Shown here: positions 248 to 29,563 of the stretch, piece by piece
How the letters are laid out: every line of letters begins with the position of its first letter
Numbering within the stretch: the stretch's first letter is position 1
DNA from: an uncultured Oceanicaulis sp.
GTDB lineage: Bacteria > Pseudomonadota > Alphaproteobacteria > Caulobacterales > Maricaulaceae
DNA length: 32,000 nt
NCBI GenBank assembly: GCA_964484345.1
Contig: CAZAGE010000015.1
Span: forward strand, 27,975 to 59,974
Direction of reading: 5' to 3'
Translations under genes and position numbers: made by a program
The notes under the pieces: generated by a model
Told to the model about the DNA's origin: nothing
What the model saw: the letters and a program-made list of their open reading frames with translations, nothing else
Databases searched by the model: none

Positions 248-1135
248 ATGCGTTTGGTCATCCCCCTGCCGGGCAATGACGCCTTCGCCGAGGCGATCGC
301 GCAGCACGCCGGTTTTGAGCTTGGCGCGCTTGAGGTCCGGCGCTTTCCCGATCAGGAGAGCTATGTACGCTTGCTGAGCGAGGTCGAGGGCCGGGATATC
401 GATTTCGCCTGCACGCTGGCCAAACCCGACCCGGGCTTTCTTCAACTGATTTTCGCCGCGGACGCGGCTCGGTCACTAGGCGCGCGCACGGTCAATCTGG
501 CCGCACCCTATCTCGCCTATATGCGCCAGGACAAGCGCTTCAAACCCGGCGAGGCGGTCACCTCGCTCAGCTTTGCGCGCCTGTTATCCTCAAGCTTCGA
601 TCATCTGGTCACCGTCGATCCGCATCTGCATCGCCACCCGTCGCTGGACGCGCTCTACACCCTATCCTCCACGACCTTGCACGCTGCGCCTGTGCTGGCT
701 GGGTGGATTGGTCGTGAAGTCGAGGCTCCGCTGTTGATCGGCCCGGATGCGGAAAGCGAGCAATGGGTTGGCGAGAGCGCGCGCGCCATCAATGCACCTT
801 ACGCCGTCTTGAGCAAAACGCGGCACGGCGATCGAAGCGTCGAGATCACCTTGCCGGATCTGTCCGTATGGGCGGGGCGCCAGCCGGTGCTGATCGACGA
901 CATCGCCTCCTCCGGCCGCACCTTGATCGAGGCGGCGAAGAAACTTGGCCAAGCCGGGTTTGCGCCGCCGGTCTGCGCGGTGGTCCATCCTCTGTTCGCG
1001 GAAGATGCGTTTGAGGCGCTGCGTGCGGTGAGCGCCGACATCATCTCCACCGATTGCGTGCCGCATCCAAGCAACCGCGTCTCGCTGGCGCCTTTGATCG
1101 CCGAAACCCTATCAGGCTTGAGGGATGCGCCATGA
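248..1135 (+). CDS. ribose-phosphate pyrophosphokinase (PRPP synthetase) family protein, short 295-aa form
   Basis: 295-aa ORF. GGAGG (234-238) lies 9 nt before ATG 248. It carries the PRPP-binding loop 'PVLIDDIASSGRTLIEAA' and has Prs-like overall layout. Its stop overlaps the next gene's start (ATGA at 1132-1135). Confidence 0.8.
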   Translation: MRLVIPLPGNDAFAEAIAQHAGFELGALEVRRFPDQESYVRLLSEVEGRDIDFACTLAKPDPGFLQLIFAADAARSLGARTVNLAAPYLAYMRQDKRFKPGEAVTSLSFARLLSSSFDHLVTVDPHLHRHPSLDALYTLSSTTLHAAPVLAGWIGREVEAPLLIGPDAESEQWVGESARAINAPYAVLSKTRHGDRSVEITLPDLSVWAGRQPVLIDDIASSGRTLIEAAKKLGQAGFAPPVCAVVHPLFAEDAFEALRAVSADIISTDCVPHPSNRVSLAPLIAETLSGLRDAP

Positions 1136-3492
1136 CCCAGAGCCCCGCTCAGCTTTGGCAAGCCGGATGCGGCCCCATCGTCCACAGGCCGGAGACGATC
1201 CAGCGCGCAGAAACCCTGCTGCACCGCCCCGGCATCGATGAAGCGACGCTATTCGGCCAGCTCGCCGCCGCAGACCGGCTGACCTGCGCCGCCATGTGGA
1301 CGATCACGCATATGACCTATGCCCGCCGCGTGGACCTGTCCGGCGCGCCGCTGCCGCGCGAGGCGTTCAAGCCCGATCCGCAGGGCCATACCGGCGGCTC
1401 GCTGAATATGGCGCCCGCCTTCGTGGGATATCTTTTGGCCAATGCGATAAGCGGCCACACCCGCGCCTGGCTGATGGGGCAGGGTCATTGCGTCGCGGCG
1501 ATTGAAGCCGTCAATGCGCTCACCGGCGATGTCTCGCCCCGACAGCGCGGACGCTATGATCGCACCCAGGCCGGCTTGTCGCACCTGGTGTCGGACTTCT
1601 ACAGCTATGCCATCGATCCCTCCGGCCGGCCCGGCGTGCCCCTGGGCAGCCATGCCGGTCCCGATACCGCGGGAGCGGTGTCTGAAGGCGGCTATCTCGG
1701 CTTCGCCGGCGTTCAATATGTGCATATGCCGCTGCCGGGCGAGCGCCTGGTCGCCTTCTTGAGTGACGGCGCCTTTGAGGAACAGCGCGGCTCGGACTGG
1801 TCGCCGCGCTGGTGGCGGGCGGAGGATTGCGGCCTGTCCGTGCCGGTGATGATCCTTAACGGGCGCCGGATCGAAGAACGCACTCAAATCGCGCAAGAGG
1901 GCGGCGCGGCTTGGTTCGCTGCTGATCTCGCCCATAACGGCTTTGACCCCATCCTGATTGACGGCCGCGACCCGGCCGCCTTCGCCTGGGCGATCTTGGA
2001 AGCGGAGGCGCGGCTAGAAGCCTTTGCGTCCGACCCAGACCGCCGCTACCCGGCGCGCCTGCCCTATATCATCGCGGAAACGGAAAAGGGGTTCGGCTTC
2101 CCGGGCGCTGACGCCAACGAAGCCCATAACCTGCCGCTGAAGGGCAATCCTTTCGATGATGCTGACGCACGTGAGGCGTTTAACGCCGGCGCCGCCAAGC
2201 TTTTCGTGCCGCCTGAGGCGCTGGAGCAGGCGGTCGGCGCGTTGGCGACCCATAGCGCGCAAGCACGGCCGCTGGAAAGCGGTCACCCTTTGGCGTCGCG
2301 CCAACCGCCTGCGCCTGATCTTCCCAGCCCGGATTGGCGCAAGCTTGAGGCGCGGTCAGCCAGCGCGATGCAGGCTTTGGATGATTGGTTCGTGCGCTTT
2401 GTCGACGCCAATCCGACGCTGCGCGTCCGCGTCGGCAATCCCGATGAGCTGCGCAGCAACAAGATGGGCGCCACGCTCGACCGGCTAAAGCACCGGGTGA
2501 ACCAGCCAGAGCCCGGCATCGCCGAAGCGGTTGATGGCGCGGTGATCACCGCGCTCAACGAAGAAGCCGTCGCCGGCGCCGCTCTGGGTAATAAGGGCGG
2601 GCTTAATCTCATCGTCAGCTATGAAGCCTTTGCGGTGAAGATGCTGGGCCTTATGCGCCAGGAGATTATCTTCGCGCGGCGTCAAAAGGAGGTCGGAGCA
2701 GCGCCGGGCTGGCTCTCAATCCCTTTGCTTGCGAGCTCCCATGTCTGGGAGAACGCCAAGAATGAGCAATCCCACCAAGATCCAACCCTCGGGGAAGCGC
2801 TGCTCGGCGAGATGTCGGACACCTCGCGCGTGATGTTCCCGGTCGACGCCAACTCGGCCATGGGGTGCCTGAAAGCGCTTTATGGCGGGCGCGGGGAATT
2901 CGCCTGCCTGATCGTGCCCAAGAAGCCCTTGCCCCATCGCTTGGGCGCCGCTGCAGCGCAAGCGCTCGCCGCCGATGGCGCGGTTCATGTCCAAGGCGAG
3001 GCGGATGCAGCGGATGTGCAGCTTGTCGCCATCGGCGGATATCAGCTCGTCGAGGTCCTCAAAGCCGCAGAGCGGCTGTCGGCGCAGGGCATCGCGCCGC
3101 TGGTCACCGTGCTGGCGGAGCCTGGCCGCTTCCGGGCTCCCCGCGACGAGATCGAGGCGGCGTTCACGGCGTCTGACGATCAGGTTGAGGCGCTGTTCCC
3201 GAGCCGAACGCCGCGCGTTCTTGCCTGCCACACCCGGCCTGAACCGATGCTCGGTGTCTTGCGCCGGATCGACGCCGGGCCAGGGCGCACAGCGGCGTGC
3301 GGCTATATCAACCGCGGCGGTACGCTGGATGTGGCCGGCCTTTTGTTCGCCAACCGCTGCAGCTGGGCGCATTTGGTGGAGGCGGCGGCCTCGGTGTTGG
3401 ATCGACCGGTTTCCGGCCTGTTGTCAGAAGACGAGATCGCAGCGCTCGCCGGGCGCGGCGATCCGACTGTCATCATGAAACCGAAAGGGTGA
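1132..3492 (+). CDS. xfp: phosphoketolase (xylulose-5-P/fructose-6-P phosphoketolase family)
   Basis: The track ORF is 1054-3492. I chose ATG 1132 because it forms an ATGA overlap with the upstream stop. The result is 786 aa, a typical Xfp length. The TPP-enzyme-like segments 'GHTGGSLNMAP', 'GQGHCVAAIEA', 'SEGGYLGF' and 'NPDELRSNKM' are consistent with phosphoketolases. Confidence 0.85.
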   Translation: MTQSPAQLWQAGCGPIVHRPETIQRAETLLHRPGIDEATLFGQLAAADRLTCAAMWTITHMTYARRVDLSGAPLPREAFKPDPQGHTGGSLNMAPAFVGYLLANAISGHTRAWLMGQGHCVAAIEAVNALTGDVSPRQRGRYDRTQAGLSHLVSDFYSYAIDPSGRPGVPLGSHAGPDTAGAVSEGGYLGFAGVQYVHMPLPGERLVAFLSDGAFEEQRGSDWSPRWWRAEDCGLSVPVMILNGRRIEERTQIAQEGGAAWFAADLAHNGFDPILIDGRDPAAFAWAILEAEARLEAFASDPDRRYPARLPYIIAETEKGFGFPGADANEAHNLPLKGNPFDDADAREAFNAGAAKLFVPPEALEQAVGALATHSAQARPLESGHPLASRQPPAPDLPSPDWRKLEARSASAMQALDDWFVRFVDANPTLRVRVGNPDELRSNKMGATLDRLKHRVNQPEPGIAEAVDGAVITALNEEAVAGAALGNKGGLNLIVSYEAFAVKMLGLMRQEIIFARRQKEVGAAPGWLSIPLLASSHVWENAKNEQSHQDPTLGEALLGEMSDTSRVMFPVDANSAMGCLKALYGGRGEFACLIVPKKPLPHRLGAAAAQALAADGAVHVQGEADAADVQLVAIGGYQLVEVLKAAERLSAQGIAPLVTVLAEPGRFRAPRDEIEAAFTASDDQVEALFPSRTPRVLACHTRPEPMLGVLRRIDAGPGRTAACGYINRGGTLDVAGLLFANRCSWAHLVEAAASVLDRPVSGLLSEDEIAALAGRGDPTVIMKPKG

Positions 3493-3496
3493 CGCC

Positions 3497-4858
3497 ATGT
3501 TGACCCTCACCTGCCTGGGCGGGGCCGGGACCGTCACCGGCTCCAAGCACCTCCTCACCCATAAGGGCCGGCGCATTCTCATCGATTGCGGCATGTTCCA
3601 GGGCTTGAAAAATCTCCGTGAGCTGAACTGGGAGCCTTTGCCGATCGCGCCGTCGAGCATTGATGCGGTGGTGCTGACGCATGCTCATCTCGATCATTGC
3701 GGCTATCTGCCCAGGCTGGTCGCCAATGGGTTTCGCGGCTCTGTCCACGCCACTTCGGCGACGGCGGATGTGGCGGAGATCATTCTTCGCGATGCAGGCT
3801 ATCTGCAGGAGAAGGACGCCGAATACGCCAACCGCAAGGGTTTCACCAAGCATAAGCCGGCCTTGCCGCTTTACACCGGCGAGGATGTCGAGCGCGCGCT
3901 GGGCCTGTTCGCGCCAGCGGGCTTTGACGAAACCATATCTCTGCCTGGCGGGGCCGAACTCAATTTCCGGCGCGCCGGCCATATCCTCGGCGCGTCTATC
4001 GTTGAGATTGAATGGGCGGGGCGGCGCATTGTGGTCTCGGGAGATCTGGGCCGCTATGGCGATCCGATGATGTTCGATCCGACGCCTGTTTCGGACGCTG
4101 ACTATGTGCTGCTGGAATCCACCTATGGCGACCGCTTGCACGAAGCTGACGACCCATTGGAGGAGCTCGGCGCCATTGTTGAGCGGACGATTAAGCGTGG
4201 CGGCACTTTGCTGATCCCGTCCTTCGCGGTCGGCCGCGCGCAGCTTATTCTCTACTATCTCTGGCAATTGAAGCGGGCGGGCCGGATGAATTCCGTGCCG
4301 ATCTATATGGACAGCCCGATGGCGATCGACGCGACGGACTTGCTGCGCGACCATATCCAGGATCACCGCCTCGACCGCGACAGTTGCCGGGAAATGTGCG
4401 CGATCGCCGAATACACGCGCGATGTCGAGCAATCCAAGGCGATCACCGCCAGCCGCTATCCCAAAGTGGTGATCTCCGCCAGCGGCATGGCGACGGGCGG
4501 CCGGATTTTGCATCATCTCAAAGCGTTCGGGCCGGATAGGCGCAGCACCATTTTGTTCGCGGGGTATCAAGCGGCCGGCACCCGAGGGCGCCGGCTGCTG
4601 CGCGGTAAGCGGGAGGTGAAAATCCATGGAAGGTGGATTCCCATTGAGGCGGAAGTCGCTGACCTGTCCCAGCTGTCCGCCCACGCCGATGCGGACGAAT
4701 TGATGCGCTGGCTGTCCGGCTTCCAACGTGAGCCGGAGCGGATCTTCATCGTCCATGGTGAGCCCGAAGCGTCCGACGCGCTGCGCGTGCGCATTCAAGG
4801 CGAGGAGCTCGGCTGGCGCGCCAGCGTGCCCCGCCCCGACCAGGTGTTTGATCTATGA
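3497..4858 (+). CDS. metallo-beta-lactamase fold hydrolase with beta-CASP domain (RNase J/CPSF-like RNA-metabolising family)
   Basis: 453 aa. Motifs: HxHxDH 'LTHAHLDHCG', 'LLESTYGDRLH' (beta-CASP ESTYG signature) and 'LSAHADADEL' near the C-terminus. An AAGGGTG SD precedes the start, and only 4 nt separate it from the xfp stop. Confidence 0.85.
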   Translation: MLTLTCLGGAGTVTGSKHLLTHKGRRILIDCGMFQGLKNLRELNWEPLPIAPSSIDAVVLTHAHLDHCGYLPRLVANGFRGSVHATSATADVAEIILRDAGYLQEKDAEYANRKGFTKHKPALPLYTGEDVERALGLFAPAGFDETISLPGGAELNFRRAGHILGASIVEIEWAGRRIVVSGDLGRYGDPMMFDPTPVSDADYVLLESTYGDRLHEADDPLEELGAIVERTIKRGGTLLIPSFAVGRAQLILYYLWQLKRAGRMNSVPIYMDSPMAIDATDLLRDHIQDHRLDRDSCREMCAIAEYTRDVEQSKAITASRYPKVVISASGMATGGRILHHLKAFGPDRRSTILFAGYQAAGTRGRRLLRGKREVKIHGRWIPIEAEVADLSQLSAHADADELMRWLSGFQREPERIFIVHGEPEASDALRVRIQGEELGWRASVPRPDQVFDL

Positions 4859-6370
4859 GCCTTCTCGACATCCCTTCCGAAGCCCGAGAGCGTCGTCCTA
4901 CCTTGCGCGCCAAGCGGCTGCATTTGAACACGCAGAGCGAGCCGGTCGTGGTGATGCGGACCGATTGCCATGTCTGCCGGTCCGAAGGCCTGTCCGCCCG
5001 CTCGCAAATTCTGCTGTCCAATAACAGCCATCAGGTGCAGGCGACGCTGTATCAGATTGAAGGCGGCGACCTGCTCGCGCCCGATGAGGCGGGTCTGTCT
5101 GAAAGTGCCTGGGATATTCTCAACATCGAGGATGGCGAGGCGGTCGAAGTTAGCCACGCGCCGATGTTGGAATCGCTCGCCCATGTGCGCCGTCGGATTT
5201 ATGGTGCGCGGCTGGACGGTGCGGCCTTTGACGCCATCGTGCGCGACGTGGTCGCCGGACGCTATACCGAGGTCCACCTGGCCGCCTTCCTGACCGGCAG
5301 CGCGGCCTTTCCCCTGGACGAGGCGGAAATCTATGAGCTGACCCGCGCCATGGTTGAAGTGGGCGATCGGCTCGATTGGGACTCTGATCTGGTGATGGAT
5401 AAACATTGCGTCGGGGGGGTGCCGGGTAACCGGACGACCCCGATCGTGGTGTCGATCGTCGCCTCTCACGGCCTTTTCATTCCCAAGACTTCCTCGCGCG
5501 CCATCACCTCACCGGCGGGGACGGCTGACACCATGGAGACGCTCGCGCCGGTGGACCTGGACATGACCGAGCTCAAGCGGGTGGTGGAGGCGGAGAATGG
5601 CTGCATCGCCTGGGGCGGCGCGGTCCATCTCAGCCCGGCCGACGACCGCTTTGTGAAGATCGAGCGGGAAATGGACATCGACACCGAAGGCCAGCTAATC
5701 GCCTCGGTCCTGTCGAAAAAAATCGCCGCAGGCGCGACCCATGTCGTCTTCGACATTCCCATCGGGGTGACAGCCAAGGTGCGCACCCAGGAGGATGGCG
5801 ACCGTTTGGCGCGGCTGACCGAAGCCGTCGCCGCACGCTTCGGCCTGAAGGTGCAGTGCCTCAAAACCGATGGGTCGCAGCCGGTCGGCCGCGGCATCGG
5901 ACCGGCGCTGGAGGCCCACGACGTGCTCGCGGTTCTTAAGAACCAGGCCGGCGCGCCAGATGACTTGCGGCAGCGCGCGGCTCTAATCGCGGGCGCGGCT
6001 CTCGAAATGGGCGGCAAGGCGGGCGCCGGGGCCGGCGCGCCGCTCGCGCTGGAGACGATCCGTGACGGCCGGGCCTGGTCGAAATTCCAGCGCATTTGCG
6101 AGGCGCAAGGCGGGCTGCGCATGCCGCCGCGCGCCCGGTGCCGACAGGCATTGCTGGCCCCTGTTTCGGGCCGGGTCGTGCATATCAATAGCCGTAAGCT
6201 CGCCAGACTGGCCAAACTCGCGGGCGCGCCCAAGGCGCAGGCGGCGGGCGTTCTGATGGAGATTCGCTTGGGCAGCGAGATCGAGCGCGGCCAACCCATG
6301 CTGCATGTCCACGCCGACACGCCCGCGGAGCTCGATTACGCGCTCGACTATGCCGAGCGCAGCCCGGACA

Positions 6371-6396
<26 letters not shown>
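4855..6396 (+). CDS. thymidine phosphorylase family protein, long form with N-terminal extra domain (archaeal AMP-phosphorylase-like)
   Basis: 513 aa. ATGA start/stop overlap at 4855-4858. The core glycosyl-transferase family 3 segments are 'DKHCVGGVPGNRTTPIVV' and 'SSRAITSPAGTADTME'. An extra N-terminal domain of about 90-100 aa precedes the helical domain, as in the roughly 500-aa 'putative thymidine phosphorylase'/AMP phosphorylase subgroup. Confidence 0.85.
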
Positions 6397-20220: not shown

Positions 20221-20251
20221 CTTGGGTCGTTAAGCGGCCCGAGGCGTGTCC

Positions 20252-21259
20252 ATGACTCTATCCTTTCCCTTCCCCGCCATCGTTGGGCAGGAGGAAATGA
20301 AACAGGCCCTGCTCATCGCTTGTGTGGAGCCGCGGATCGGGGGCGTTTTGGTATTCGGCGACCGCGGCACGGCGAAGTCGACCGCGGTTCGCGCTCTGGC
20401 TGATCTTCTTCCGCCGATCAAGACTTATGAGTCCTGCCCGTATAACTCCGCGCCCGGCTCCCAGCCGATCAACGGCCATGATAAGAATCGCGGGCCGGAG
20501 GTGACCAAGCCGACGCCGGTTGTCGATTTGCCGCTTGGCGTCACCGAAGACCGGGTCGTCGGCGCGCTCGACATCGAAAAGGCCATGCGCAGGGGCGAAA
20601 AGGCGTTTGAGCCTGGGCTATTGGCCAAGGCCAATCGCGGTTTTCTTTATATCGACGAGGTGAACCTGTTGGAGGATCACATCGTCGACCTTCTGCTCGA
20701 CGTCGCCGCCACCGGCGAGAATGTCGTCGAGCGCGACGGGCTCTCCGTCCGCCATCCCGCCCGCTTCGTCCTTGTGGGCAGCGGCAATCCGGAAGAGGGC
20801 GAGTTGCGGCCGCAGCTCTTGGACCGCTTCGGCCTGTCGGTGGAGGTGGAGACCCCGCGCGATATCGAAGACCGCATCGAAGTCGTGCGCCGCCGCGATG
20901 CCTTTGAGCGCGACCCCGACGCTTTCCGCGCCGAGTGGGCCGAGCCTGAAGCCGAGCTGCGCAATCGCATCGCCGAAGCCCAGGCGCGGGTCAACGCGCT
21001 GGAGGCCTCTGAAGCTGTGCTGCGCAAAGCGTCCGAGCTTTGTCTCGCCATGGGCGCAGACGGTCTTCGCGGCGAGTTGACCCTCATTCGCGCCGCCCGC
21101 GCCAAGGCGGCGCTGGATGGCGACGACACGGTGGAGATCGAGCATCTCAAAGCCGTCGCGCCCTCCGCGCTGCGCCACCGTCTGCGCCGTGACCCGCTGG
21201 ATGAGGCTGGCTCCACCGCCCGCATCGAGCGCGGGCTCTCAGAGGTTTTCGCCGCGTGA
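20252..21259 (+). CDS. bchI: magnesium chelatase ATPase subunit I
   Basis: 'FPFPAIVGQEEMKQALL', Walker A 'GDRGTAKST', 'GFLYIDEVNLLEDHIVDLLLDV' and 'LLDRFGL'. ATG 20252 (GAGG 7 nt upstream) is preferred over GTG 20246. Confidence 0.95.
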   Translation: MTLSFPFPAIVGQEEMKQALLIACVEPRIGGVLVFGDRGTAKSTAVRALADLLPPIKTYESCPYNSAPGSQPINGHDKNRGPEVTKPTPVVDLPLGVTEDRVVGALDIEKAMRRGEKAFEPGLLAKANRGFLYIDEVNLLEDHIVDLLLDVAATGENVVERDGLSVRHPARFVLVGSGNPEEGELRPQLLDRFGLSVEVETPRDIEDRIEVVRRRDAFERDPDAFRAEWAEPEAELRNRIAEAQARVNALEASEAVLRKASELCLAMGADGLRGELTLIRAARAKAALDGDDTVEIEHLKAVAPSALRHRLRRDPLDEAGSTARIERGLSEVFAA

Positions 21260-22986
21260 GCGGGAGCGGCCATACGCGAAGCCCTTGGGCTCAAGCGCGT
21301 CTGGTCGCAGGCCTGCTGGCGATTGATCCTGGTCTTGGCGGCGTCGTGCTGCGCGCGCGGGCTGGTCCTGTGAGGGACGCCTGGCTGTCGCTGTTTCAAA
21401 GCCTCATCAACGAGGACACGCCCTGGCGGCGCATCCCGGCGGGGGTGACGGACGAGGCCTTGCTCGGCGGGATTGATCTTGCCGCCACGCTCAAGACCGG
21501 CCGCGCGGTGCACCGCTCCGGCCTGCTGGACGCCATTGGGTCGGGTGTCGGCGTGCTCGCCATGGCCGAACGCGCCGAGGCTGGCCTCGCGGGTCGCCTG
21601 GCGGCGGCGCTGGACGGCGAAAACCCGCCCCTGATCGTCGCGCTGGATGAAGGCGCTGAGCCGGATGAAGTCGTGCCAGCCGCCCTGGCGGAGCGCCTCG
21701 CCTTCCATCTTGATCTCTCCGACATCGCCCTTGGGGCGCTCGATGAGGACACGCGTGAGATTGACCGCGAAACCCTGGCCATGGCACGCATGCATTTGCC
21801 CCATGTGCTTAATGGCGGGGCGGAGCCGGCGCTGACCTCGGCGGCGCTGGCGCTGGGCGTCGACAGCTTGCGGCCGCCGATTTTCGCGCTACGCGCCGCG
21901 CGCGCGGCCGCGGCGCTGGATGGCCGGGACGAGATCGACGAAGACGACGCCTCCCTTGCCGCGAGGCTGATCCTCGCCACCCGCGCCACGCGCTTGCCCG
22001 CCGTGGAGGAGGACGAGCCGCAAGAACCTGAAGCGCCGGACGAGGGCGAGGCGGAAGCGCGCGCCGATACGCCGGAGGGCGACGCCGATGACGCGCCCGC
22101 GCCCGACGCCCTGACCGAAATCACCACCGAAGCCGCCCAAGCCGCCATCCCGCCCGGCCTGCTCGCCAAGCTGGAGGCGGGCGCCCAAGCGCCGAAGTCG
22201 CGCGCCGCCGGCAAGGCGGGCGCGGTCCAGAAGGACGGCGTGCGCGGCCGCCCGGCCGGCTCGCGCCGCGGCGAGGTGGGGCAGGGCCGGCGGCTCGATC
22301 TTATGGCGACATTGCGCGCCGCCGCCCCCTGGGGCCGAGCGCGCCGCCGGGGCTGGAAACGCTTCAAACCGGGACCCTCGGTGGAAGTGCGCAAGGAAGA
22401 CTTCCGCATCAAACGCTTCAAGCAAAAGGCCGAGACCGAGACGATTTTTGTCGTCGACGCGTCTGGGTCTCTGGCGCTGAACCGTTTGGCCGAAGCCAAA
22501 GGCGCGGTCGAGCTGATGCTGGCGGAATCCTATGTGCGCCGCGACCAGGTGGCGGTGATCGCGTTTCGGGGCCGGGGCGCAGAAATGCTGTTGCCGCCGA
22601 CCCGCTCGCTGACCCGCGCCAAGCGCAGCCTGGCGGCCTTGCCGGGCGGCGGCGGCACGCCGCTCGCCGCGGCGATCGAAGCGGCGGAAGCCGCCGCCCA
22701 CGCCGCCACGCGCCAGGGCCGCAGCGTGACGCTGGTCTTCCTCACCGATGGCGCAGCCAATGTCACCCGGGAGGGCGAACCAGGCCGGGAGATGGCGCAA
22801 GCCGAAGCCCGCCAGGCCGCCAAGAATCTGCGCGCCCAGGGCCACGCGGCGATCGTCGTCGACGTCTCCAAGCGCGGCGCGGAGGCGGCGCGGTCGATGG
22901 CCTTGGATATGGGCGCACGCTATGCGCGCTTGCCGACCAATAATCCCGGCGCGCTGGCCGATCTGGCGCGGGAGGCGGCGGCATGA
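21256..22986 (+). CDS. bchD: magnesium chelatase subunit D
   Basis: 576 aa. GTGA overlap with bchI. Degenerate AAA-like N-domain, acidic/Pro-rich linker 'EEDEPQEPEAPDEGEAEARADTPEGDADDAPAPD', and a C-terminal vWA domain with MIDAS 'VVDASGS'. Confidence 0.95.
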   Translation: MSGSGHTRSPWAQARLVAGLLAIDPGLGGVVLRARAGPVRDAWLSLFQSLINEDTPWRRIPAGVTDEALLGGIDLAATLKTGRAVHRSGLLDAIGSGVGVLAMAERAEAGLAGRLAAALDGENPPLIVALDEGAEPDEVVPAALAERLAFHLDLSDIALGALDEDTREIDRETLAMARMHLPHVLNGGAEPALTSAALALGVDSLRPPIFALRAARAAAALDGRDEIDEDDASLAARLILATRATRLPAVEEDEPQEPEAPDEGEAEARADTPEGDADDAPAPDALTEITTEAAQAAIPPGLLAKLEAGAQAPKSRAAGKAGAVQKDGVRGRPAGSRRGEVGQGRRLDLMATLRAAAPWGRARRRGWKRFKPGPSVEVRKEDFRIKRFKQKAETETIFVVDASGSLALNRLAEAKGAVELMLAESYVRRDQVAVIAFRGRGAEMLLPPTRSLTRAKRSLAALPGGGGTPLAAAIEAAEAAAHAATRQGRSVTLVFLTDGAANVTREGEPGREMAQAEARQAAKNLRAQGHAAIVVDVSKRGAEAARSMALDMGARYARLPTNNPGALADLAREAAA

Positions 22987-23885
22987 GGATTTTGCCTGTC
23001 CCGCAAGACTGGCCCCACAAAGGCGCCAGCGAAACCATCGAAGCGGGCGGCGTCGCCTGGCATGTCCAGCGTTTCGGGACCGGCCCGGCGCTGCTGCTGA
23101 TCCATGGTACCGCGGCGTCGACCCACTCCTTCCGCAGCCTCGCCGATCAGCTCGCGAGTGATTTTGAAATCATCATGGTCGACCTGCCGGGTCACGGCTT
23201 TTCCAGCCCGCTTGATGCACCCAGCCTGCCGCGTGTGGCGGAAGCGCTGGGCGCGTTGATAAAGAAACTGGGCGTGTCGCCGGCTCTGGTGGCCGGCCAT
23301 TCCGCCGGTGCGGCGGTGGCGATCCGCATGGCGCTGGATGGCTGGATCGACCCTAGCGGTGTGATCGGCCTGGCCCCGGCGCTCAAGCCTTATGGCGGAT
23401 CCGTTGACGGTCTTGCGTCGCGCCTGGCCAAGCTGGTCTTCTTCAATCCAATCGCGCCGCGCCTGCTCGCGATGCAGGCGAGCGAGAAGCGAGTGACGAA
23501 GCTGTTGGGCAGCACGGGATCTCGCCTCGATCCGGCCGGGACCGACTATTATGTCCGCCTGTTCAAACGGCCCGAGCATCTGGCCGGGGCGCTGCGCCTG
23601 ATGGCGAACTGGAATCTGCGGCCGCTGTTGGAAGACCTGCCCCAGCTTGCGCCGAAGCTGACCCTGATTGTCGGCGACCGGGACAAGGCCACGCCCGTGC
23701 GCGACGCGGAACAGGCTGCGCGTCTCGCGCCCCGTTCAGAACTCATTCGCCTCACCGGCTTCGGGCATCTCGCTCATGAAGAAGCGCCGGAAAAGGCCGC
23801 CGAGATTATCCGCCAGGCCGCTGAGCGGCATGGCCTCATCACTCACATCGCCGAAGACGCGCCCCTGCTTGAGTTGGCGCGGTAA
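22983..23885 (+). CDS. bchO: alpha/beta hydrolase, magnesium chelatase accessory protein BchO
   Basis: 300 aa. ATGA overlap with bchD. 'LLLIHGTAAS', nucleophile elbow 'GHSAG', C-terminal 'GHLAHEE'. Its position after bchI-bchD matches Rhodobacter bchO. Confidence 0.8.
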   Translation: MRILPVPQDWPHKGASETIEAGGVAWHVQRFGTGPALLLIHGTAASTHSFRSLADQLASDFEIIMVDLPGHGFSSPLDAPSLPRVAEALGALIKKLGVSPALVAGHSAGAAVAIRMALDGWIDPSGVIGLAPALKPYGGSVDGLASRLAKLVFFNPIAPRLLAMQASEKRVTKLLGSTGSRLDPAGTDYYVRLFKRPEHLAGALRLMANWNLRPLLEDLPQLAPKLTLIVGDRDKATPVRDAEQAARLAPRSELIRLTGFGHLAHEEAPEKAAEIIRQAAERHGLITHIAEDAPLLELAR

Positions 23886-23895
23886 GGAGCCCCCC

Positions 23896-25416
23896 ATGTT
23901 GAAACGCACCGATGATGAAACGCCTGAGGATGACCGGCCCCACGCCGTCGTGATCGGGTCGGGCTTTGGCGGTCTCGCCGCCGCGGTTCGGCTGGGCGCG
24001 CGCGGCTACCGCGTGACGGTTCTGGAAAAGCTCGATGCGCCGGGCGGCCGGGCCTACGTGTTTAAAGACGGCGGCTATGTCTTCGATGCGGGGCCCACCA
24101 TTATCACCGTGCCCTTTCTGCTCGAAGAGTTATGGGAGCTGGCCGGCCGCAAGTTCGAAGACGATATCGAGCTACGCGAGATGAATCCCTTCTACGGCAT
24201 CCGCTTTGATGACGGCGATGTGGTCCATTGCTATCGCGACGCCAATGTGATGCGCGAAGAGGTCAAACGCATCTCGCCCGGCGATGTCGAGGGCTATGAG
24301 CGCTTTTTGAAGAAGAGCAAGGACATCTTCGAGGTGGGCTTCAAACAGCTCGCCCATGTGCCCTTCCACACGCTCAAATCCATGGTCGACGTCACGCCCG
24401 ATCTGATCCGGCTGGAGTCCTATCGCTCGGTCCATGCCCTGGTCTCGCGCTATGTGAAGAACCCCAAGCTACAGGTGGCGCTGAATTTCCACCCGCTTTT
24501 GGTGGGCGGCAATCCCTATGCGGCCAGCTCGTTTTACTGCCTCATCTCCTATCTCGAGCGCGAATGGGGCGTGCATTTCGTCATGGGCGGCACCGGCAAG
24601 CTGATCGAGGGCCTGGTCAAGCTGATCGAGGGCCAAGGCGGTCAGGTTTTGTGTGACAGCGAAGTCGCCCAGATCACCACCGAGAACGGCAAAGCGACCG
24701 GCGTGCGCCTGGCCGATGGCCGGCAGGTGCGGGCCGATATCGTCGTCTCCAACGCCGAAGTGGGCCACACCTATAAATATCTGTTGTCGGAGACCAAGCG
24801 GAAACGCTGGACCGACCGCAAGGTCGACAATGCCCGCTACTCCATGAGCCTCTTCCTCTGGTATTTCGGCACCAAGAAGAAATACCCGGACGTCGATCAC
24901 CACACGATCATATTGGGGCCGCGCTATCGCGGGCTTTTGAACGACATCTTCAAGAAAAAGAAGCTGGCGGATGATTTCAGCCTGTATCTCCATCGGCCCA
25001 CCGCCACTGATCCGTCCATGGCCCCGGAAGGGTGTGAAGCCTTCTACGTCCTCTCCCCGGTGCCCAATCTGAAAGGGGATACGGATTGGGAGTCGATGGC
25101 CGAGCCCTATCGGCAGGCCGTGGAACAGCGGCTGGAGGAAACGGTGCTGCCCGGCCTGAAGGAGAATGTGACGGTGTCTCGCGTTCTCACTCCGATCGAT
25201 TTCCGCGATCGCTTGAACTCCATTGACGGCGCCGCTTTCGGGCTGGAGCCCTTGCTGACCCAGTCGGCCTGGTTCCGGGCGCACAACAAGTGCGGCGATG
25301 TGGAGGGGCTGTATCTGGTCGGCGCGGGCACCCATCCGGGCGCGGGCGTGCCTGGCGTGTTGTCTTCGGCCCGGGTGCTCGACGCCGTAGTGCCTGACGC
25401 CAAGGTCCATGGCTGA
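23896..25416 (+). CDS. crtI: phytoene desaturase
   Basis: The track ORF starts at 23668. ATG 23896 was chosen because AAGGAG lies upstream and the start is 10 nt after the bchO stop. FAD fold 'VVIGSGFGGLAAAVRLGARGYRVTVLEKLDAPGGRA' and C-terminal 'LYLVGAGTHPGAGVPGV'. Confidence 0.92.
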   Translation: MLKRTDDETPEDDRPHAVVIGSGFGGLAAAVRLGARGYRVTVLEKLDAPGGRAYVFKDGGYVFDAGPTIITVPFLLEELWELAGRKFEDDIELREMNPFYGIRFDDGDVVHCYRDANVMREEVKRISPGDVEGYERFLKKSKDIFEVGFKQLAHVPFHTLKSMVDVTPDLIRLESYRSVHALVSRYVKNPKLQVALNFHPLLVGGNPYAASSFYCLISYLEREWGVHFVMGGTGKLIEGLVKLIEGQGGQVLCDSEVAQITTENGKATGVRLADGRQVRADIVVSNAEVGHTYKYLLSETKRKRWTDRKVDNARYSMSLFLWYFGTKKKYPDVDHHTIILGPRYRGLLNDIFKKKKLADDFSLYLHRPTATDPSMAPEGCEAFYVLSPVPNLKGDTDWESMAEPYRQAVEQRLEETVLPGLKENVTVSRVLTPIDFRDRLNSIDGAAFGLEPLLTQSAWFRAHNKCGDVEGLYLVGAGTHPGAGVPGVLSSARVLDAVVPDAKVHG

Positions 25417-26443
25417 GCGTTTCGCCAGCGATGACGATCTAAAGGCCTGCCGCACGGCGATCCGCGGGGGCTCGAAGAGCTTTTTCGCCGCCTCGCTGCT
25501 GCTGCCGCGCAAGACCCGCGACCGTGCGTATGCGCTTTATGGCTTCTGCCGGTTCGCCGACGACGCGGTGGATGAGGGCGAGGACCCGGCGGCCGCGTGC
25601 GCCCGGCTGTCCGAGCGGCTCGATTTGATCTATGGCGGCGAGCCTGGCGATGATCCTGTCGATCGCGCCTTCGCCGATGTCGTGCGCGACTGCGGCATCC
25701 CCCAAGAGCTGCCCGCCGCTCTTATTGAAGGCTTCGCCTGGGACGCCGAGGAACGGCGCTATGAAACCCTCTCTGATGTCCGGGCCTATGGCGCGCGCGT
25801 GGCGAGTTCGGTGGGGGCCATGATGGCGCTGGTCATGGGCGTGCGTAGTGCGGAAGCTCTGGCGAGAGCCTGCGACCTGGGCGTCGCCATGCAGCTCACT
25901 AATATCGCCCGCGATGTTGGCGAAGACGCCCGGCTGGGCCGGCTTTATCTGCCGCGCGAGTGGTTCATCAAGGCGGATCTCGACCCAGACGCCTGGCTCG
26001 CCGCGCCAGTCTTTAATCCAAACATCGCCGCGTTCGTCGAACGCCTGCTCGCCGAGGCGGACCGGCTCTATACCCGCGCCCGGCCTGGCGTCGCCCTTCT
26101 GCCGGCAACGTGCCGCCCGGCCATCCACGCCGCTTCGCGGATTTATCGCGAGATCGGGGTGGAGGCGGAAAAGGCCGGCTTCAATACCGTCACCCACCGC
26201 GCCGTCACCTCCAAAGGGCGCAAGCTTCAGCTCGCCGGCGCGGCTTTGCTCGACGCCGCGTTCGGGTCAAGCGGATCCGGCAAAGCGCCGCTGGAGGAGA
26301 CTCGCTTTCTGGTCGACGCGGCGCCCAATGAGGCCCAACCTGACACCTTGCCGCCCTGGTGGCAGTCCATCGACAAGGATGTGGGCCGCATCGCGACCAT
26401 CTTCTATGATCTGGAGATGCGCCAGCGCGCGCGCCGGTATTAG
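25409..26443 (+). CDS. crtB: phytoene synthase
   Basis: 344 aa. The start overlaps the crtI end by 8 nt. Motifs 'GSKSFFAASLLLP', 'YGFCRFADDAVDE' and 'TNIARDVGEDARLGRLYLP' (the two Asp-rich squalene/phytoene synthase motifs). Confidence 0.92.
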   Translation: MAERFASDDDLKACRTAIRGGSKSFFAASLLLPRKTRDRAYALYGFCRFADDAVDEGEDPAAACARLSERLDLIYGGEPGDDPVDRAFADVVRDCGIPQELPAALIEGFAWDAEERRYETLSDVRAYGARVASSVGAMMALVMGVRSAEALARACDLGVAMQLTNIARDVGEDARLGRLYLPREWFIKADLDPDAWLAAPVFNPNIAAFVERLLAEADRLYTRARPGVALLPATCRPAIHAASRIYREIGVEAEKAGFNTVTHRAVTSKGRKLQLAGAALLDAAFGSSGSGKAPLEETRFLVDAAPNEAQPDTLPPWWQSIDKDVGRIATIFYDLEMRQRARRY

Positions 26444-26473
26444 ACGGGCTGCGTTCCGCGTGGAGAAGACGCG

Positions 26474-26593
26474 ATGACGCTCTATCTCTTGCTCTTCATG
26501 GAAGCCTTGCCCTTTCTCGCTCTCGTGGCCTTCGGCGTCCGAGAGCTGGTGCTGCTGGATCGGCTAAAGAAAGACCAGGACGGAGCTGAGTGA
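26474..26593 (+). CDS. unannotated micro-ORF, 39-aa single-pass membrane peptide (MTLYLLLFMEALPFLALVAFGVRELVLLDRLKKDQDGAE)
   Basis: Below the ORF-track length cut-off; I translated it by hand. GGAGAA SD lies 6 nt before ATG 26474. The stop TGA (26591-26593) shares one base with the tspO ATG (TGATG). It has one hydrophobic helix followed by a charged tail. Hand-counted third-position GC is about 74%, similar to tspO. Confidence 0.45.
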   Translation: MTLYLLLFMEALPFLALVAFGVRELVLLDRLKKDQDGAE

Positions 26594-27057
26594 TGGACGC
26601 CCCCTTTTGGACCGCCATTCCCTTTCTCCTTCTGGTGCTGCTGGCCTCATCGACGGGGGCCATTTTCAAGCCCGGCGTCTGGTATCGCGAGCTGGATAAA
26701 CCCAGCTGGACGCCGCCCAACTGGCTTTTCCCCGTCGCCTGGGCGGGGCTTTTCGTGATGATGGCCTATGCCGCTTGGCGGGTCTGGCAGCTCGATGGCG
26801 TCGGCGTGCCGCTGGTTTTGTGGGGCGTGCAGCTGGGCCTCAACGCGCTGTGGTCGGCGATCTTCTTTGGGATGAAGCGCTTGGGGCTGGCGCTGGTTGA
26901 GCTGATGGCGATGTGGGTCGCCATCGCCGCCACCTTGATCGCCTTTGCTCAGATCGATCTGCTCGCCGCGGCCCTGCTTGCGCCCTATCTCGTCTGGGTG
27001 AGTTTTGCAGGAGCGTTGAACTTCGCCATATTGCGCCGACAAGGGAGCCCGGCATGA
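26593..27057 (+). CDS. tspO: tryptophan-rich sensory protein (TspO/CrtK)
   Basis: About 154 aa with five TM segments. 'WYRELDKPSWTPPNWLFPVAWAGLFVMMAYAAWRVW' and 'LAPYLVWVSFAGALNFAI'. The start is ATG 26593 (or GTG 26590). Confidence 0.9.
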   Translation: MDAPFWTAIPFLLLVLLASSTGAIFKPGVWYRELDKPSWTPPNWLFPVAWAGLFVMMAYAAWRVWQLDGVGVPLVLWGVQLGLNALWSAIFFGMKRLGLALVELMAMWVAIAATLIAFAQIDLLAAALLAPYLVWVSFAGALNFAILRRQGSPA

Positions 27058-27206
27058 GCGTTGATAGCTATTATCTGGTCAAAGGCCTGCTGGTCTTCGG
27101 CGGCCTGTTCGCCTTTTTGGGCTGGCAGTATTGGGATGTCAGCCGCGACATCCGGCGCGCCAAGGCCAAAGAGGCCTCAGAAAGCGCGGGGCATTCGGAA
27201 GGGTAG
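27054..27206 (+). CDS. unannotated micro-ORF, 50-aa single-pass membrane peptide (MSVDSYYLVKGLLVFGGLFAFLGWQYWDVSRDIRRAKAKEASESAGHSEG)
   Basis: ATGA overlap with the tspO stop (27054-27057). GGGAG SD (27043-27047) lies 6 nt upstream. It has one hydrophobic helix followed by a basic/acidic tail. Hand-counted third-position GC is about 74%. Its 3' end overlaps the convergent crtC by 30 nt. Confidence 0.5.
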   Translation: MSVDSYYLVKGLLVFGGLFAFLGWQYWDVSRDIRRAKAKEASESAGHSEG

Positions 27207-28226
27207 CAGCAGGCGCACCCAGTTTGACGAAAAGCGCTTGAGATCCAGGCTTTCATGCATGGAGATGCGCCGTTCGCCCAATAACTCCGTCTCGATCATC
27301 GAGCGGGTGTAAAAGGGCGTATCCTCCAGCGTCTTCACCACGCGGCCGTCGCCCTCTGAACGGGACGGCCTTGCGACGCCCCACATCACATTGGGCAAGG
27401 CGATCTCCGGCGGCGCCTCGAAATGCTCTATTCCGCCGTCCTCGCGGATCCGCAGGGCCAAGCCATGCTCGCCGCCGCCGGCGGGCTGACAGTCATAAAG
27501 GATCGCCGCGCCGTCCGGCATCGCCGTACGCGCCCAGCTCCAGGATTTGAAGCCTGCCTCCAGCGGTTCCAGCCCCGCATTCATGTCGACATAGCCATCG
27601 CCCGACCAATCGAGCTCCGGCTTGTCGAATTTGGCGCTGACGCGGGCCTTGGGCCAGACCGGCCGCCAGGCATGGCGGCCATGGGGGTCGAGGGTGAATT
27701 GCTCGCTTTGTTGAACCTCGGGCTCGATGACGATCTGGCCGCGCACCGGATAGGGAATGGGGGCGGCGGTCTCGCGGATATTGAAAATAAGCTTGCCGTC
27801 TTCAAAGCGGACGCTGCTGGGGCCGAAGACAAAGTGATCCTCGCCCCGGTCGATCGCCTTGGACGTCCGCTCCGTCATGGCCCAGCGGGTCTTGCCGCCG
27901 CCGTAAAGCCCGACATTGAGCGCGCAATGGTTTTCCGGCCGGCCCCGTCCGGACCAGGCGTAGTAGGGGGAGAACACGCTGCCGATCAGCGCGATCAGGA
28001 TCAGGCCGAAGCATCCGTCGTCGCTGAAGGCGTCGGCGTAGAGCCAGCGGTAGCCGCCGGGCGGGATCTCGGCCTGAAAGCCAAATCGGCTAAGATCGAG
28101 CGCGCCGCCGTGCGGCCCGACAGCATCGAGGTGGGCACCCCGGGCCCCGGATGCGTCCCGCCGCCGGCCAGATACAGCCCCGGAATCTTGCTGCGCGCCC
28201 CCGGCCTTTGAAACGCCGACTGCCAT
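27177..28226 (-). CDS. crtC: acyclic carotenoid 1,2-hydratase (hydroxyneurosporene synthase); start codon unresolved
   Basis: CrtC-like sequence 'PPGGYRWLYADAFSDDGCFGLILIALIGSVFSPYYAWSGRGRPENHCALNV ... FYTRSMIETELLGERRISMHESLDLKRF'. The conserved part begins near 28080. In this frame the only canonical starts are ATG 28226 (226-nt overlap with crtD) and GTG 27977 (which truncates the conserved N-terminus). See findings. Confidence 0.8.
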   Translation of the reverse strand: MAVGVSKAGGAQQDSGAVSGRRRDASGARGAHLDAVGPHGGALDLSRFGFQAEIPPGGYRWLYADAFSDDGCFGLILIALIGSVFSPYYAWSGRGRPENHCALNVGLYGGGKTRWAMTERTSKAIDRGEDHFVFGPSSVRFEDGKLIFNIRETAAPIPYPVRGQIVIEPEVQQSEQFTLDPHGRHAWRPVWPKARVSAKFDKPELDWSGDGYVDMNAGLEPLEAGFKSWSWARTAMPDGAAILYDCQPAGGGEHGLALRIREDGGIEHFEAPPEIALPNVMWGVARPSRSEGDGRVVKTLEDTPFYTRSMIETELLGERRISMHESLDLKRFSSNWVRLLLPFRMPRAF

Positions 28227-29563
28227 CCGTGCAGCGCGCGGCCGTAAATCGCTCCGCTGGACCCGGGAAACAGCTTGGCGAAGCCGTCCGGGGCGGTGGC
28301 CACGGCGTCGTCCAGGGACAGCTCCAGCCCGCAAGCCTTGAGCCGGTTGAGCGTGAGATCGAGCCATGGGCCGGTTTCCTCCGCCGTATAAGTGTGGGTG
28401 TCCCCGTCGGCGGGGGCGTTGATCAGGATTAAGAAGCGTTCCGGGCCGTCCGGCTCGGCGTCGACGCCGCGATCCTGCGCGCAGATATAAATGGTCGGAT
28501 CGTCCGGAATCCGGCGCTCTTCAAACAGCGCCTGGAATTCCGCCGCATAGTTCGGACTGAACACCACATTGTGCCGGTCGAGCGCAAAGCCGTCGGGGCG
28601 GCCGACCGCCGTCCAGACCATGGCGGAAAGGCTGCGCTTCATCTTCGCCGGGGGCAGCGCCCAGCTCGCTGGATCGCCCAGCAGGCCGTCGCGCAGCGCG
28701 TCGGGGTCCGCGTTCGACAATACGGCCCGCGCGCGGATCGTTTCGCCGGATTGAAGCCTGACGCCGACCGCCTCGGCGCCCTCAATGAGGATTTCTTCAA
28801 CGCCGTCGCCATAGCGAATGTCTGCGCCCAGCTGGCTGGCGAAATTCGCCATGCCATGGGCGAGGCGGCTCATCCCGCCTTTGACATACCAGACCCCGCG
28901 CTGCTCCAGCTCCGCAATCATCATCAGCGTGGCCGGCGCGTTATAAGGCGAAGCCCCGCAATAGGTGGCGTAGCGTCCGAATAGCTGTCGCAGGCGCTTG
29001 TCCGGGAAATAGTCGCCGAGGGCCCCCCAAAGTGTGGAGAAGGGCCGCAAGGTGAAGGCGCCGCTGGGATTATTCATCAGCATGCGCGTGGTCAGGCCGA
29101 CCGGCGAAGCTTGCGGCGCCTGGACGAAATTGCGGTCCAGCGCCTCATAAAGCCGCGCGCCATCCTTGAGGAATTTGCGGAACAGGCCCGCCTGGTCTCC
29201 GCCGAAGAAGCGGTGGACCTCCTCTACAGACTCATCAGGGTCCGCGAACAGGTCAAAGGTGTCCGTATCGTCCCAGGCATGGCGCGCCAGGCGTGTCGCG
29301 GTGATCAGCGGGACATGATCGTCGAAGCTGGCGCCCGCGTCTTCGAACAAGGCGTCAAACGCGCTCTTGAGCGTCATCACGGTGGGGCCGGCGTCGATAG
29401 GCTGCCCGCCCACCTCGATGGTGCGCATCTTCCCGCCGGGCGCTTTTTCCTTCTCTACAAGGGTTACCGGGACGCCGCGCGCGGCCAGATCGATGGCGGC
29501 GGAAAGCCCGCCCATGCCCGCGCCGATAACCACCACGCCGTCTTGCGATCGCGCGCTGGTCAT
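28001..29563 (-). CDS. crtD: hydroxyneurosporene/methoxyneurosporene desaturase (CrtI-family FAD oxidoreductase)
   Basis: 520 aa. 'VVVIGAGMGGLSAAIDLAARGVPVTLVEKEKAPGGKM' and C-terminal 'LYLAGGGTHPGPGVPTSMLSGRTAARSILADL'. The last ~24 codons are low-complexity and overlap the crtC N-terminal coding frame. Confidence 0.9.
   Translation of the reverse strand: MTSARSQDGVVVIGAGMGGLSAAIDLAARGVPVTLVEKEKAPGGKMRTIEVGGQPIDAGPTVMTLKSAFDALFEDAGASFDDHVPLITATRLARHAWDDTDTFDLFADPDESVEEVHRFFGGDQAGLFRKFLKDGARLYEALDRNFVQAPQASPVGLTTRMLMNNPSGAFTLRPFSTLWGALGDYFPDKRLRQLFGRYATYCGASPYNAPATLMMIAELEQRGVWYVKGGMSRLAHGMANFASQLGADIRYGDGVEEILIEGAEAVGVRLQSGETIRARAVLSNADPDALRDGLLGDPASWALPPAKMKRSLSAMVWTAVGRPDGFALDRHNVVFSPNYAAEFQALFEERRIPDDPTIYICAQDRGVDAEPDGPERFLILINAPADGDTHTYTAEETGPWLDLTLNRLKACGLELSLDDAVATAPDGFAKLFPGSSGAIYGRALHGWQSAFQRPGARSKIPGLYLAGGGTHPGPGVPTSMLSGRTAARSILADLAFRPRSRPAATAGSTPTPSATTDASA

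Follow-up and report, generated by a model that had tools for sequence, protein, structure and literature searches.

What are the two very short open reading frames (ORFs) that bracket tspO in a photosynthesis gene cluster (PGC) of an uncultured Oceanicaulis sp., and do they belong to TspO or to the cluster as a whole? We address this question in a stretch of 32,000 nucleotides (contig CAZAGE010000015.1, positions 27,975 to 59,974; henceforth the window), in which the upstream ORF (ORF1) and the downstream ORF (ORF2) each meet tspO in a stop/start overlap. The first-pass annotation had read both as small membrane partners or modulators of TspO; the part of that reading which made them real, probably coupled coding genes stands, and the part which dedicated them to TspO does not, as the family to which they are assigned here is mostly found without tspO. 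With a probability of roughly 0.7, we regard ORF1 and ORF2 as translated paralogues of an unnamed family of bitopic peptides, proper to alphaproteobacterial PGCs, of 35–90 residues (median 51.5 amino acids, aa), which would act as a small accessory pigment subunit and not as a dedicated TspO subunit. The features on which this turns are:

26462-26467, + strand: Shine-Dalgarno (SD)-like GGAGAA of ORF1, by sequence reading
26474-26593, + strand: ORF1, 39 aa, single-pass membrane peptide, divergent family member by profile score (ATG 26474, stop TGA 26591-26593)
26593-27057, + strand: tspO, 154 aa from ATG 26593 (Pfam TspO_MBR 3.3e-44; NCBIfam NF047825, the alphaproteobacterial TspO equivalog model, 1.2e-53)
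27043-27047, + strand: SD-like GGGAG of ORF2, within the end of tspO, by sequence reading
27054-27206, + strand: ORF2, 50 aa, single-pass membrane peptide, terminal cistron of the operon (ATG 27054-27056, stop TAG 27204-27206)

ORF1 begins 30 nucleotides (nt) behind the crtB stop, an interval in which a promoter/terminator scan returned no promoter-like site, and 8 nt separate the end of its GGAG from its ATG. Its TGA has one base in common with the tspO ATG (26593-26595; TGATG), and the closing part of ORF1 contains a GGAG (26582-26585) that is a candidate SD for tspO. The ORF2 ATG overlaps the tspO stop (TGA 27055-27057; ATGA), and L097, one of the related loci considered below, carries a GGAG at the position matching the ORF2 SD. 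The GC content at third codon positions is 0.74 for both ORFs, 0.81 for tspO and 0.78 for crtB. The coordinates, SD sites, overlaps and third-position GC of the two ORFs had all been read in this way by the first-pass annotation, and each was confirmed on re-reading the sequence. By hydropathy and charge counts, ORF1 and ORF2 each contain one hydrophobic stretch followed by a K/R-rich segment and then an acidic tail, and AlphaFold2 models ORF2 as a single helix (residues 3-47) with a mean predicted local distance difference test score of 85, in agreement with the proposal that both encode single-pass membrane peptides.

The tspO-flanking peptides of three loci (L001-L003) have one pattern in common with ORF1 and ORF2. 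Starting from 19 sequences of this tspO-flanking type, a profile was grown to 52 proteins of 37-73 aa and scored against the 1.84 billion cluster representatives of a protein collection, where it matched 1,376 clusters (50% identity) at E <= 1e-3 and 65 at E <= 1e-10; every one of the best 150 matches was 34-92 aa long. The motif is ...IE..LVFG.VLGFG.W(E/Q)L.SLRR followed by a charged tail. In the consensus of 150 sequences it reads M-(S/D)-x3-6-hydrophobic x4-E(93%)-x2-L-V-F-G(89%)-x-V-L-(G/A)-(F/W)-(G/A)-x and continues as W(79%)-(E/Q)(100%)-L(90%)-x-S-L-R-R(93%) into a K/R/D/E-rich tail of variable length, so that the conserved positions are Glu10 (93%), Gly16 (89%), Trp24 (79%), E/Q25 (100%), Leu26 (90%) and Arg31 (93%). 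When ORF1, ORF2 and one near relative were removed, a hidden Markov model of the remaining 147 sequences, scored on 9,470 six-frame ORFs, still recovered ORF2 at E 1.7e-12 (46.5 bits) and ORF1 at E 2.2e-4 (20.5 bits), the next ORF of the window having E 2.6. Each peptide departs from the motif at two positions. ORF1 keeps Glu10, Glu25, Leu26 and the Arg; its position 16 is Leu, and Arg replaces Trp24, a variant found elsewhere in the family too; ORF2 keeps Gly16, Trp24, Gln25 and Arg31 and has Tyr at position 26 and Lys at position 10, the Lys being present in all ORF2 orthologues (YYL(V/F)KG). These profile scores place ORF1 and ORF2 as paralogues in a single large, unnamed family, a relationship that the first-pass annotation had missed, with ORF1 as a weak, divergent member and ORF2 as a member of a lineage-specific subfamily.

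Existing family models do not capture these peptides. No match at or above threshold was obtained when ORF1, ORF2 and, from the wider family, 19 members plus 10 consensus-like ones were scanned with Pfam and NCBIfam, and the identities suggested below threshold were rejected because all scores were under the Pfam gathering cut-off: the LapA domain (LapA_dom, best E 0.0037, <17 bits vs a cut-off of 28), CcmD (13.9 vs 25.6), FixQ/CcoQ (10 vs 29) and DUF5516 (13.7 vs 25). Against 177,635 distinct PDB sequences the best match of the family profile had E 0.095 and fell on unrelated human receptors, which agrees with the earlier view that the peptides are not a known photosynthesis small subunit, and tblastn of a consensus-like member against the PLSDB plasmids gave no match. 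Some members carry automatic names from the Joint Genome Institute (among P0021, P0205, P0114, P0209 and P0214), namely "heme/copper-type cytochrome/quinol oxidase subunit 2" and "heme exporter protein D", names that seem to have been transferred wrongly to a lone hydrophobic helix.

The size of ORF1 and ORF2 is not significant by itself, because ORFs of this length are common in DNA of 64.5% GC (58 of at least 25 aa within 4.5 kb), and their reality was therefore tested comparatively. Frame, start, SD and overlaps are kept in five related loci (L001, L003, L087, L088 and L097). The order crtI-crtB-39 aa-tspO-~50 aa, converging on crtC, is repeated with identical overlaps in L087, L088, L097 and L001 (metagenomic or genomic loci), L001 having one additional copy, and L003 combines the ORF1 type with a different downstream copy. 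The ratio of nonsynonymous to synonymous divergence (dN/dS), calculated by the Nei-Gojobori method, was 0.09-0.18 for ORF1 in five of six pairs, dS being saturated in the sixth, with Fisher p values over all six pairs of 4e-3 to 1.5e-8. Codons 1-40 of ORF2 gave 0.09-0.33 in 8 of 10 pairs and 0.51 and 0.73 in the remaining two; for comparison, the ratio was 0.02-0.17 for tspO and ~0.06 for the crtC core. In a collection of 5.8 billion proteins ORF1 and ORF2 are present as called genes (P0044 and P0001), ORF1 with the orthologues P0050, P0051, P0058 and P0059 and ORF2 with six called homologues at 75-82% identity; at NCBI, orthologues are labelled "hypothetical protein" (e.g. MCP2671191.1). Judged by these comparisons ORF1 and ORF2 are genuine coding genes, and both the conservation and the purifying selection that the first-pass annotation had proposed to look for in related clusters are borne out, dN/dS being mostly far under 1. 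Its further proposal, translational coupling to tspO, is probable given that the overlaps are kept in all five loci.

The synonymous divergence of ORF2 is low in some pairs (window-L087 0.14 vs 0.80 for tspO; window-L001 0.30 vs 1.16 for the crtC core) and normal against L097 (0.64), few sites entering the dS comparison. A search for a conserved hairpin that might explain the low values found none, and an Rfam scan of the whole window returned no RNA family. A hairpin with a T-run inside ORF2 (27099-27113) was considered as a terminator and rejected, being weak and not kept in L001 or L088.

The distribution of the family was surveyed in 97 sources (733 kb, yielding the 9,470 six-frame ORFs); 80 tspO-seeded loci were examined, and a metagenome scan with a 10-sequence alignment led to three loci. 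Every profile match at E < 0.1 lay on the operon strand, between the last large gene of bchIDO(-crtIB)(-tspO) and crtC, and noise set in from E > 1. Of 25 non-redundant contexts, 24 have the peptide in the slot closing a bchIDO(-crtIB)(-tspO) operon, with the last copy abutting the 3' end of convergent crtC, and 10 of those contexts are without tspO. An operon has one family copy, sometimes two or three (L032 and L001 have tandem copies behind tspO, L002 ahead of it), and the peptide start is a few bases from, or overlaps, the stop of whichever gene precedes. At 23 non-redundant loci and in the window, the distance from the end of the last copy to the crtC stop is -65 to +250 nt, mostly -31 to +36. 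The following layouts were recorded:

Pontixanthobacter aestiaquae (L089): bchI-bchD-bchO-peptide, convergent with crtC-crtD
L095 and L096: bchI-bchD-bchO-peptide, convergent with crtC-crtD
L098: bchI-bchD-bchO-peptide, convergent with crtC-crtD; the peptide ATG overlaps the bchO stop (ATGA)
L090: bchIDO-crtB-peptide, convergent with crtC
Afifella (L091): bchIDO-crtI-crtB-peptide, convergent with crtC
L081, L085 and L093: peptide convergent with crtC, without tspO
L092: tspO on the opposite strand, 1.1 kb off
L083/L084, the sole exception: peptide behind dxs at the edge of the PGC, crtC not nearby

All 11 contexts reached from family members have an operon without tspO, ten of them being without any tspO and L092 having it as the other-strand neighbour. 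The peptide of L076 is separated from tspO by 2.3 kb and from the 3' end of crtC by 11 nt. Among the 80 tspO-seeded loci, those without a downstream crtC contain zero family members. Convergent crtC lies downstream in 35 tspO loci. In 11 of these the spacer measures 133 nt or more, and all but one of the 11 contain the peptide; the remaining 24, with spacers of -23 to +95 nt and mostly of Rhodobacterales type, have no family member. ORF1 placed upstream of tspO, as in the window, was seen only there and in L001, L002, L003, L087, L088 and L097. The carriers comprise at least Sphingomonadales, Hyphomicrobiales, Rhodospirillales-like and Maricaulaceae-like bacteria. As far as these gene orders go, the family is the terminal cistron, or cistrons, of the Mg-chelatase/early-carotenoid operon, PGC-specific and independent of tspO, and in the Maricaulaceae-like lineage of the window the gene is duplicated with the copies bracketing tspO.

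Some individual loci deserve a remark. The order at the exceptional locus L083 (1190-5129), and at L084, is bchD, bchO, a gene for a 434-aa SQS_PSY protein, one for a 166-aa protein without Pfam match, dxs, the peptide and a Tae4-domain gene, with no crtC within 5 kb. The only spacer of at least 133 nt that lacks a family ORF is that of L023 (4447-4668; 220 nt), and it contains no other membrane-like ORF either. Neighbouring 36-aa single-helix ORFs occur in Afifella (L091, 6232-6342; MGEMALLPSLTLMTLGGLIALAIVFVVYKMKSRRPR), where there is no profile match, and in L085 (2570-2680), where there is a weak one (E 0.005).

The motif lends itself to a geometric proposal. Ahead of the helix, family members have zero K/R residues, and the 15 residues behind it contain five (median); by the positive-inside rule, the peptide is predicted to insert with its N terminus out and its C terminus in. 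The two conserved polar positions would then lie about one turn inside each membrane boundary, the conserved acidic residue being one turn inside the outer leaflet. W-(E/Q)-L would sit at the inner interface, with the RR pair as an anchor and the variable charged tail in the cytoplasm, and the small-residue face F-G-x3-G/A-x-G/A would be open to helix packing. In the window, ribosomes would pass from crtB through ORF1 and tspO to ORF2 by termination-reinitiation, and the peptide, made along with Mg-chelatase and the early carotenoid enzymes, would be a small accessory subunit whose glycine face docks on a PGC-common membrane component of pigment biosynthesis or assembly; its effect may be to tether these enzymes, or their hydrophobic products, to the membrane or to organise them there.

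Several points weigh against this reading. The partner and function of the family are inferred, and every member is known from its sequence alone. Sampling is uneven, 13 contexts being tspO-seeded or reached through close homologues and 11 family-seeded on longer contigs, and the contexts examined cover a minority of the 1,376 clusters. A conserved convergent layout might by itself account for the closeness to crtC. ORF1 is the weaker member, with 20.5 bits when left out of the profile and without the family Gly16 and Trp24, and ORF2 has Lys in place of a 93%-conserved Glu; the two copies of the window may have gained a lineage-specific role, possibly with TspO. A more far-reaching reading is tentative, and we would sooner doubt than adopt it: the family would be an overlooked, widely conserved component of non-Rhodobacterales proteobacterial PGCs with a dedicated role in pigment supply, and in this lineage Glu10 of ORF1 and Lys10 of ORF2 may pair through an intramembrane salt bridge as a heterodimer that recruits TspO. 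The pigment-supply role could be that of a functional counterpart of PufQ or TspO, acting on tetrapyrrole/carotenoid flux, or that of an escort for carotenoids or bacteriochlorophyll intermediates.

A serious alternative, although we consider it unlikely, is that the peptide is an accessory of the carotenoid pathway proper, serving as a membrane partner or a substrate/product escort for CrtC/CrtD, which carry out the 1,2-hydration and 3,4-desaturation of acyclic carotenoids. It is consistent with the closeness of the last copy to the crtC stop (-65 to +250 nt) wherever crtC is within reach, and Glu10 and E/Q25, some 15 residues apart and beside a glycine-lined groove, could in principle hold a polar-ended, membrane-spanning polyene. 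However, the peptide and crtC are convergent and without co-transcription, the bchIDO layout facing crtCD is itself conserved, so that adjacency, on which a CrtC/CrtD-specific role mainly rests, could be explained by the layout and may be uninformative, the peptide of L083/L084 stands behind dxs away from any crtC, and Rhodobacterales have crtC and crtD but not the peptide.

More improbable is the proposal from which this analysis started, in which ORF1 and ORF2 serve TspO exclusively, as small partners or modulators held at a fixed ratio to it through translational coupling. Stop/start overlaps are kept on both sides of tspO in the window, L087, L088, L097, L001 and L003; ORF1-type copies were seen solely directly upstream of tspO; the highest copy number (two to three) occurs in the tspO-containing operons of this clade; and the derived Glu-to-Lys change in ORF2 and all its orthologues could mark neofunctionalisation. 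In contrast, family members mostly occur without tspO and are coupled equally tightly to bchO or crtB where either of these precedes, and in L076 the peptide stays at the crtC end and not with tspO. The "GVRELxLL" variant of ORF1 is also present in L085, a locus without tspO. Dedication fails in both directions, with the peptide lacking tspO in 10 contexts and tspO lacking the peptide in the 24 short-spacer, mostly Rhodobacterales-type tspO-crtC loci and in all tspO-seeded loci without a downstream crtC; what is left of a TspO-partner model is the possibility that these copies, for example the ORF1 type, have specialised in this lineage. Hardly credible is the remaining explanation, that the ORFs are chance ORFs or translated spacers (serving coupling, mRNA protection or a convergent terminator region) whose peptide sequence is irrelevant: chance ORFs of their length are common at this GC, ORF2 overlaps the crtC 3' end and the low dS of some ORF2 pairs may point to a degree of constraint on the nucleotides, but amino-acid conservation, seen in a defined motif across 1,376 clusters and in dN/dS far under 1, rules this out, the profile matches are limited to one strand and one slot, and there is neither an Rfam match nor a conserved hairpin.

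The remainder of the cluster in the window fits the operon described for the family. From 20246 on the window is the left end of the PGC, bchI being its first gene; on the + strand follow bchD, bchO, crtI, crtB, ORF1, tspO and ORF2, which face crtC-crtD and then crtE-crtF on the - strand, and from bchI to crtB there are zero non-PGC genes in between. The genes not listed above are:

20246-21259, + strand: bchI (Pfam Mg_chelatase/AAA_lid_2)
21256-22986, + strand: bchD (Pfam VWA_2)
22983-23885, + strand: bchO (Pfam Abhydrolase)
23896-25416, + strand: crtI (ORF list; tblastn to orthologues)
25409-26443, + strand: crtB, phytoene synthase (Pfam SQS_PSY 4.9e-73)
27177-28367, - strand: crtC, maximal ORF with several candidate starts (ORF list; tblastn identities 35-96%)

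The last 30 nt of ORF2 and of crtC overlap tail to tail on opposite strands (27177-27206), which the first-pass annotation had also missed, and the convergent transcripts would consequently be complementary there. A 30-nt overlap of this type is also present in L087, L088 and L001; the gene calls of L085 overlap by 62 nt, and further loci have shorter overlaps. Orthologues of crtC carry the Pfam domain PF27123 CrtC. At its other end the crtC frame overlaps the 3' end of crtD (28001-29563, - strand) by 226-367 nt in a different frame, the in-frame starts being ATG 28367 (with a GGAGGA SD), TTG 28334 and ATG 28226. GTG 27977, which corresponds to the 266-aa gene calls in L087, L088 and L097, was rejected as the start since CrtC homology begins well upstream of it. 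In the 130 codons overlapped by crtC and crtD, dS is 0.02-0.15 and dN/dS ~1, as dual coding predicts. Outside the PGC, window positions 248-6396 hold a co-oriented block of genes for a phosphoribosyl pyrophosphate synthetase-like protein, a phosphoketolase-like protein (XFP), a beta-CASP metallo-beta-lactamase RNase and a glycosyltransferase of family 3; this block is followed by genes for a P-type ATPase (- strand), flavodoxin, LacI, a TonB receptor, GH16, MFS, GH3 and an ABC1 kinase, and then by bchI at 20246.

The gene inventory of purple-bacterial PGCs is usually regarded as essentially complete, and BciE and protein-Y, both added in the last decade, each altered the understanding of a step. 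No published description of the family, or of a named small ORF between bchO/crtB/tspO and crtC, was found in open-access text, where PGC surveys give generic "hypothetical" genes only; an older description is possible. The family is absent from the Rhodobacterales-type tspO-crtC loci examined, and since the Rhodobacter models belong to that group, this is probably why it was overlooked. What emerges is a small, testable PGC gene coupled to the Mg-chelatase/early-carotenoid operon, without a name or a Pfam or NCBIfam model and with misleading automatic labels. A family profile would rescue many unannotated or mislabelled micro-genes and provide a marker for the end of the bchIDO operon, and with cultured carriers such as Afifella and Pontixanthobacter aestiaquae its role is directly testable.

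Among known systems, PufQ of Rhodobacter (PF05398) invites comparison, being likewise small, single-pass, PGC-encoded and co-transcribed with pigment or photosystem genes, and its helix ends in G-W...R-E-R-R, a likeness to the family. PufQ modulates bacteriochlorophyll biosynthesis. It is not known from outside Rhodobacterales, and in the tspO-crtC loci sampled here from that group the new family is missing. In contrast to the family peptides, PufQ has an extended N-terminal region and a greater length (74 aa), and it belongs to the puf operon, whereas the peptides belong to the bchIDO-crt operon and ORF1/ORF2 lie between crtB and crtC and not upstream of pufBA. The first-pass annotation had set PufQ aside, and rightly so: as an identity for ORF1/ORF2 it is rejected, with no Pfam PufQ match at E up to 1-10 and an hhalign probability of 0.8%, the latter being a preliminary test with an approximate PufQ query sequence. 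In Rhodobacterales-type PGCs the slot itself, at the end of the crtIB operon and facing crtC, is occupied by TspO/CrtK, also a membrane protein linked to pigment regulation; however, TspO has five helices in ~155 aa and an unrelated fold and family, and the peptide occurs with or without it. PufX, protein-Y/U, protein W and LH1 gamma, the small polypeptides of the reaction centre-light-harvesting 1 complex, are, like the family, phototroph-specific single helices (30-80 aa) that pack on transmembrane helices, but they are encoded in puf/puh operons and not in the bch/crt part, and no PDB chain matches the family profile. CydX, KdpF and AcrZ, which have no homology to the family, share its small size (<60 aa), its one helix, its position as a translationally coupled last cistron and its tendency to be missed in annotation, and they join the membrane complex of their operon. 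Without membership in any of these families by the tests run, the peptides bracketing tspO and their relatives appear to resemble, as a group, the class of operon-encoded single-helix accessory peptides to which PufQ, PufX and CydX belong.

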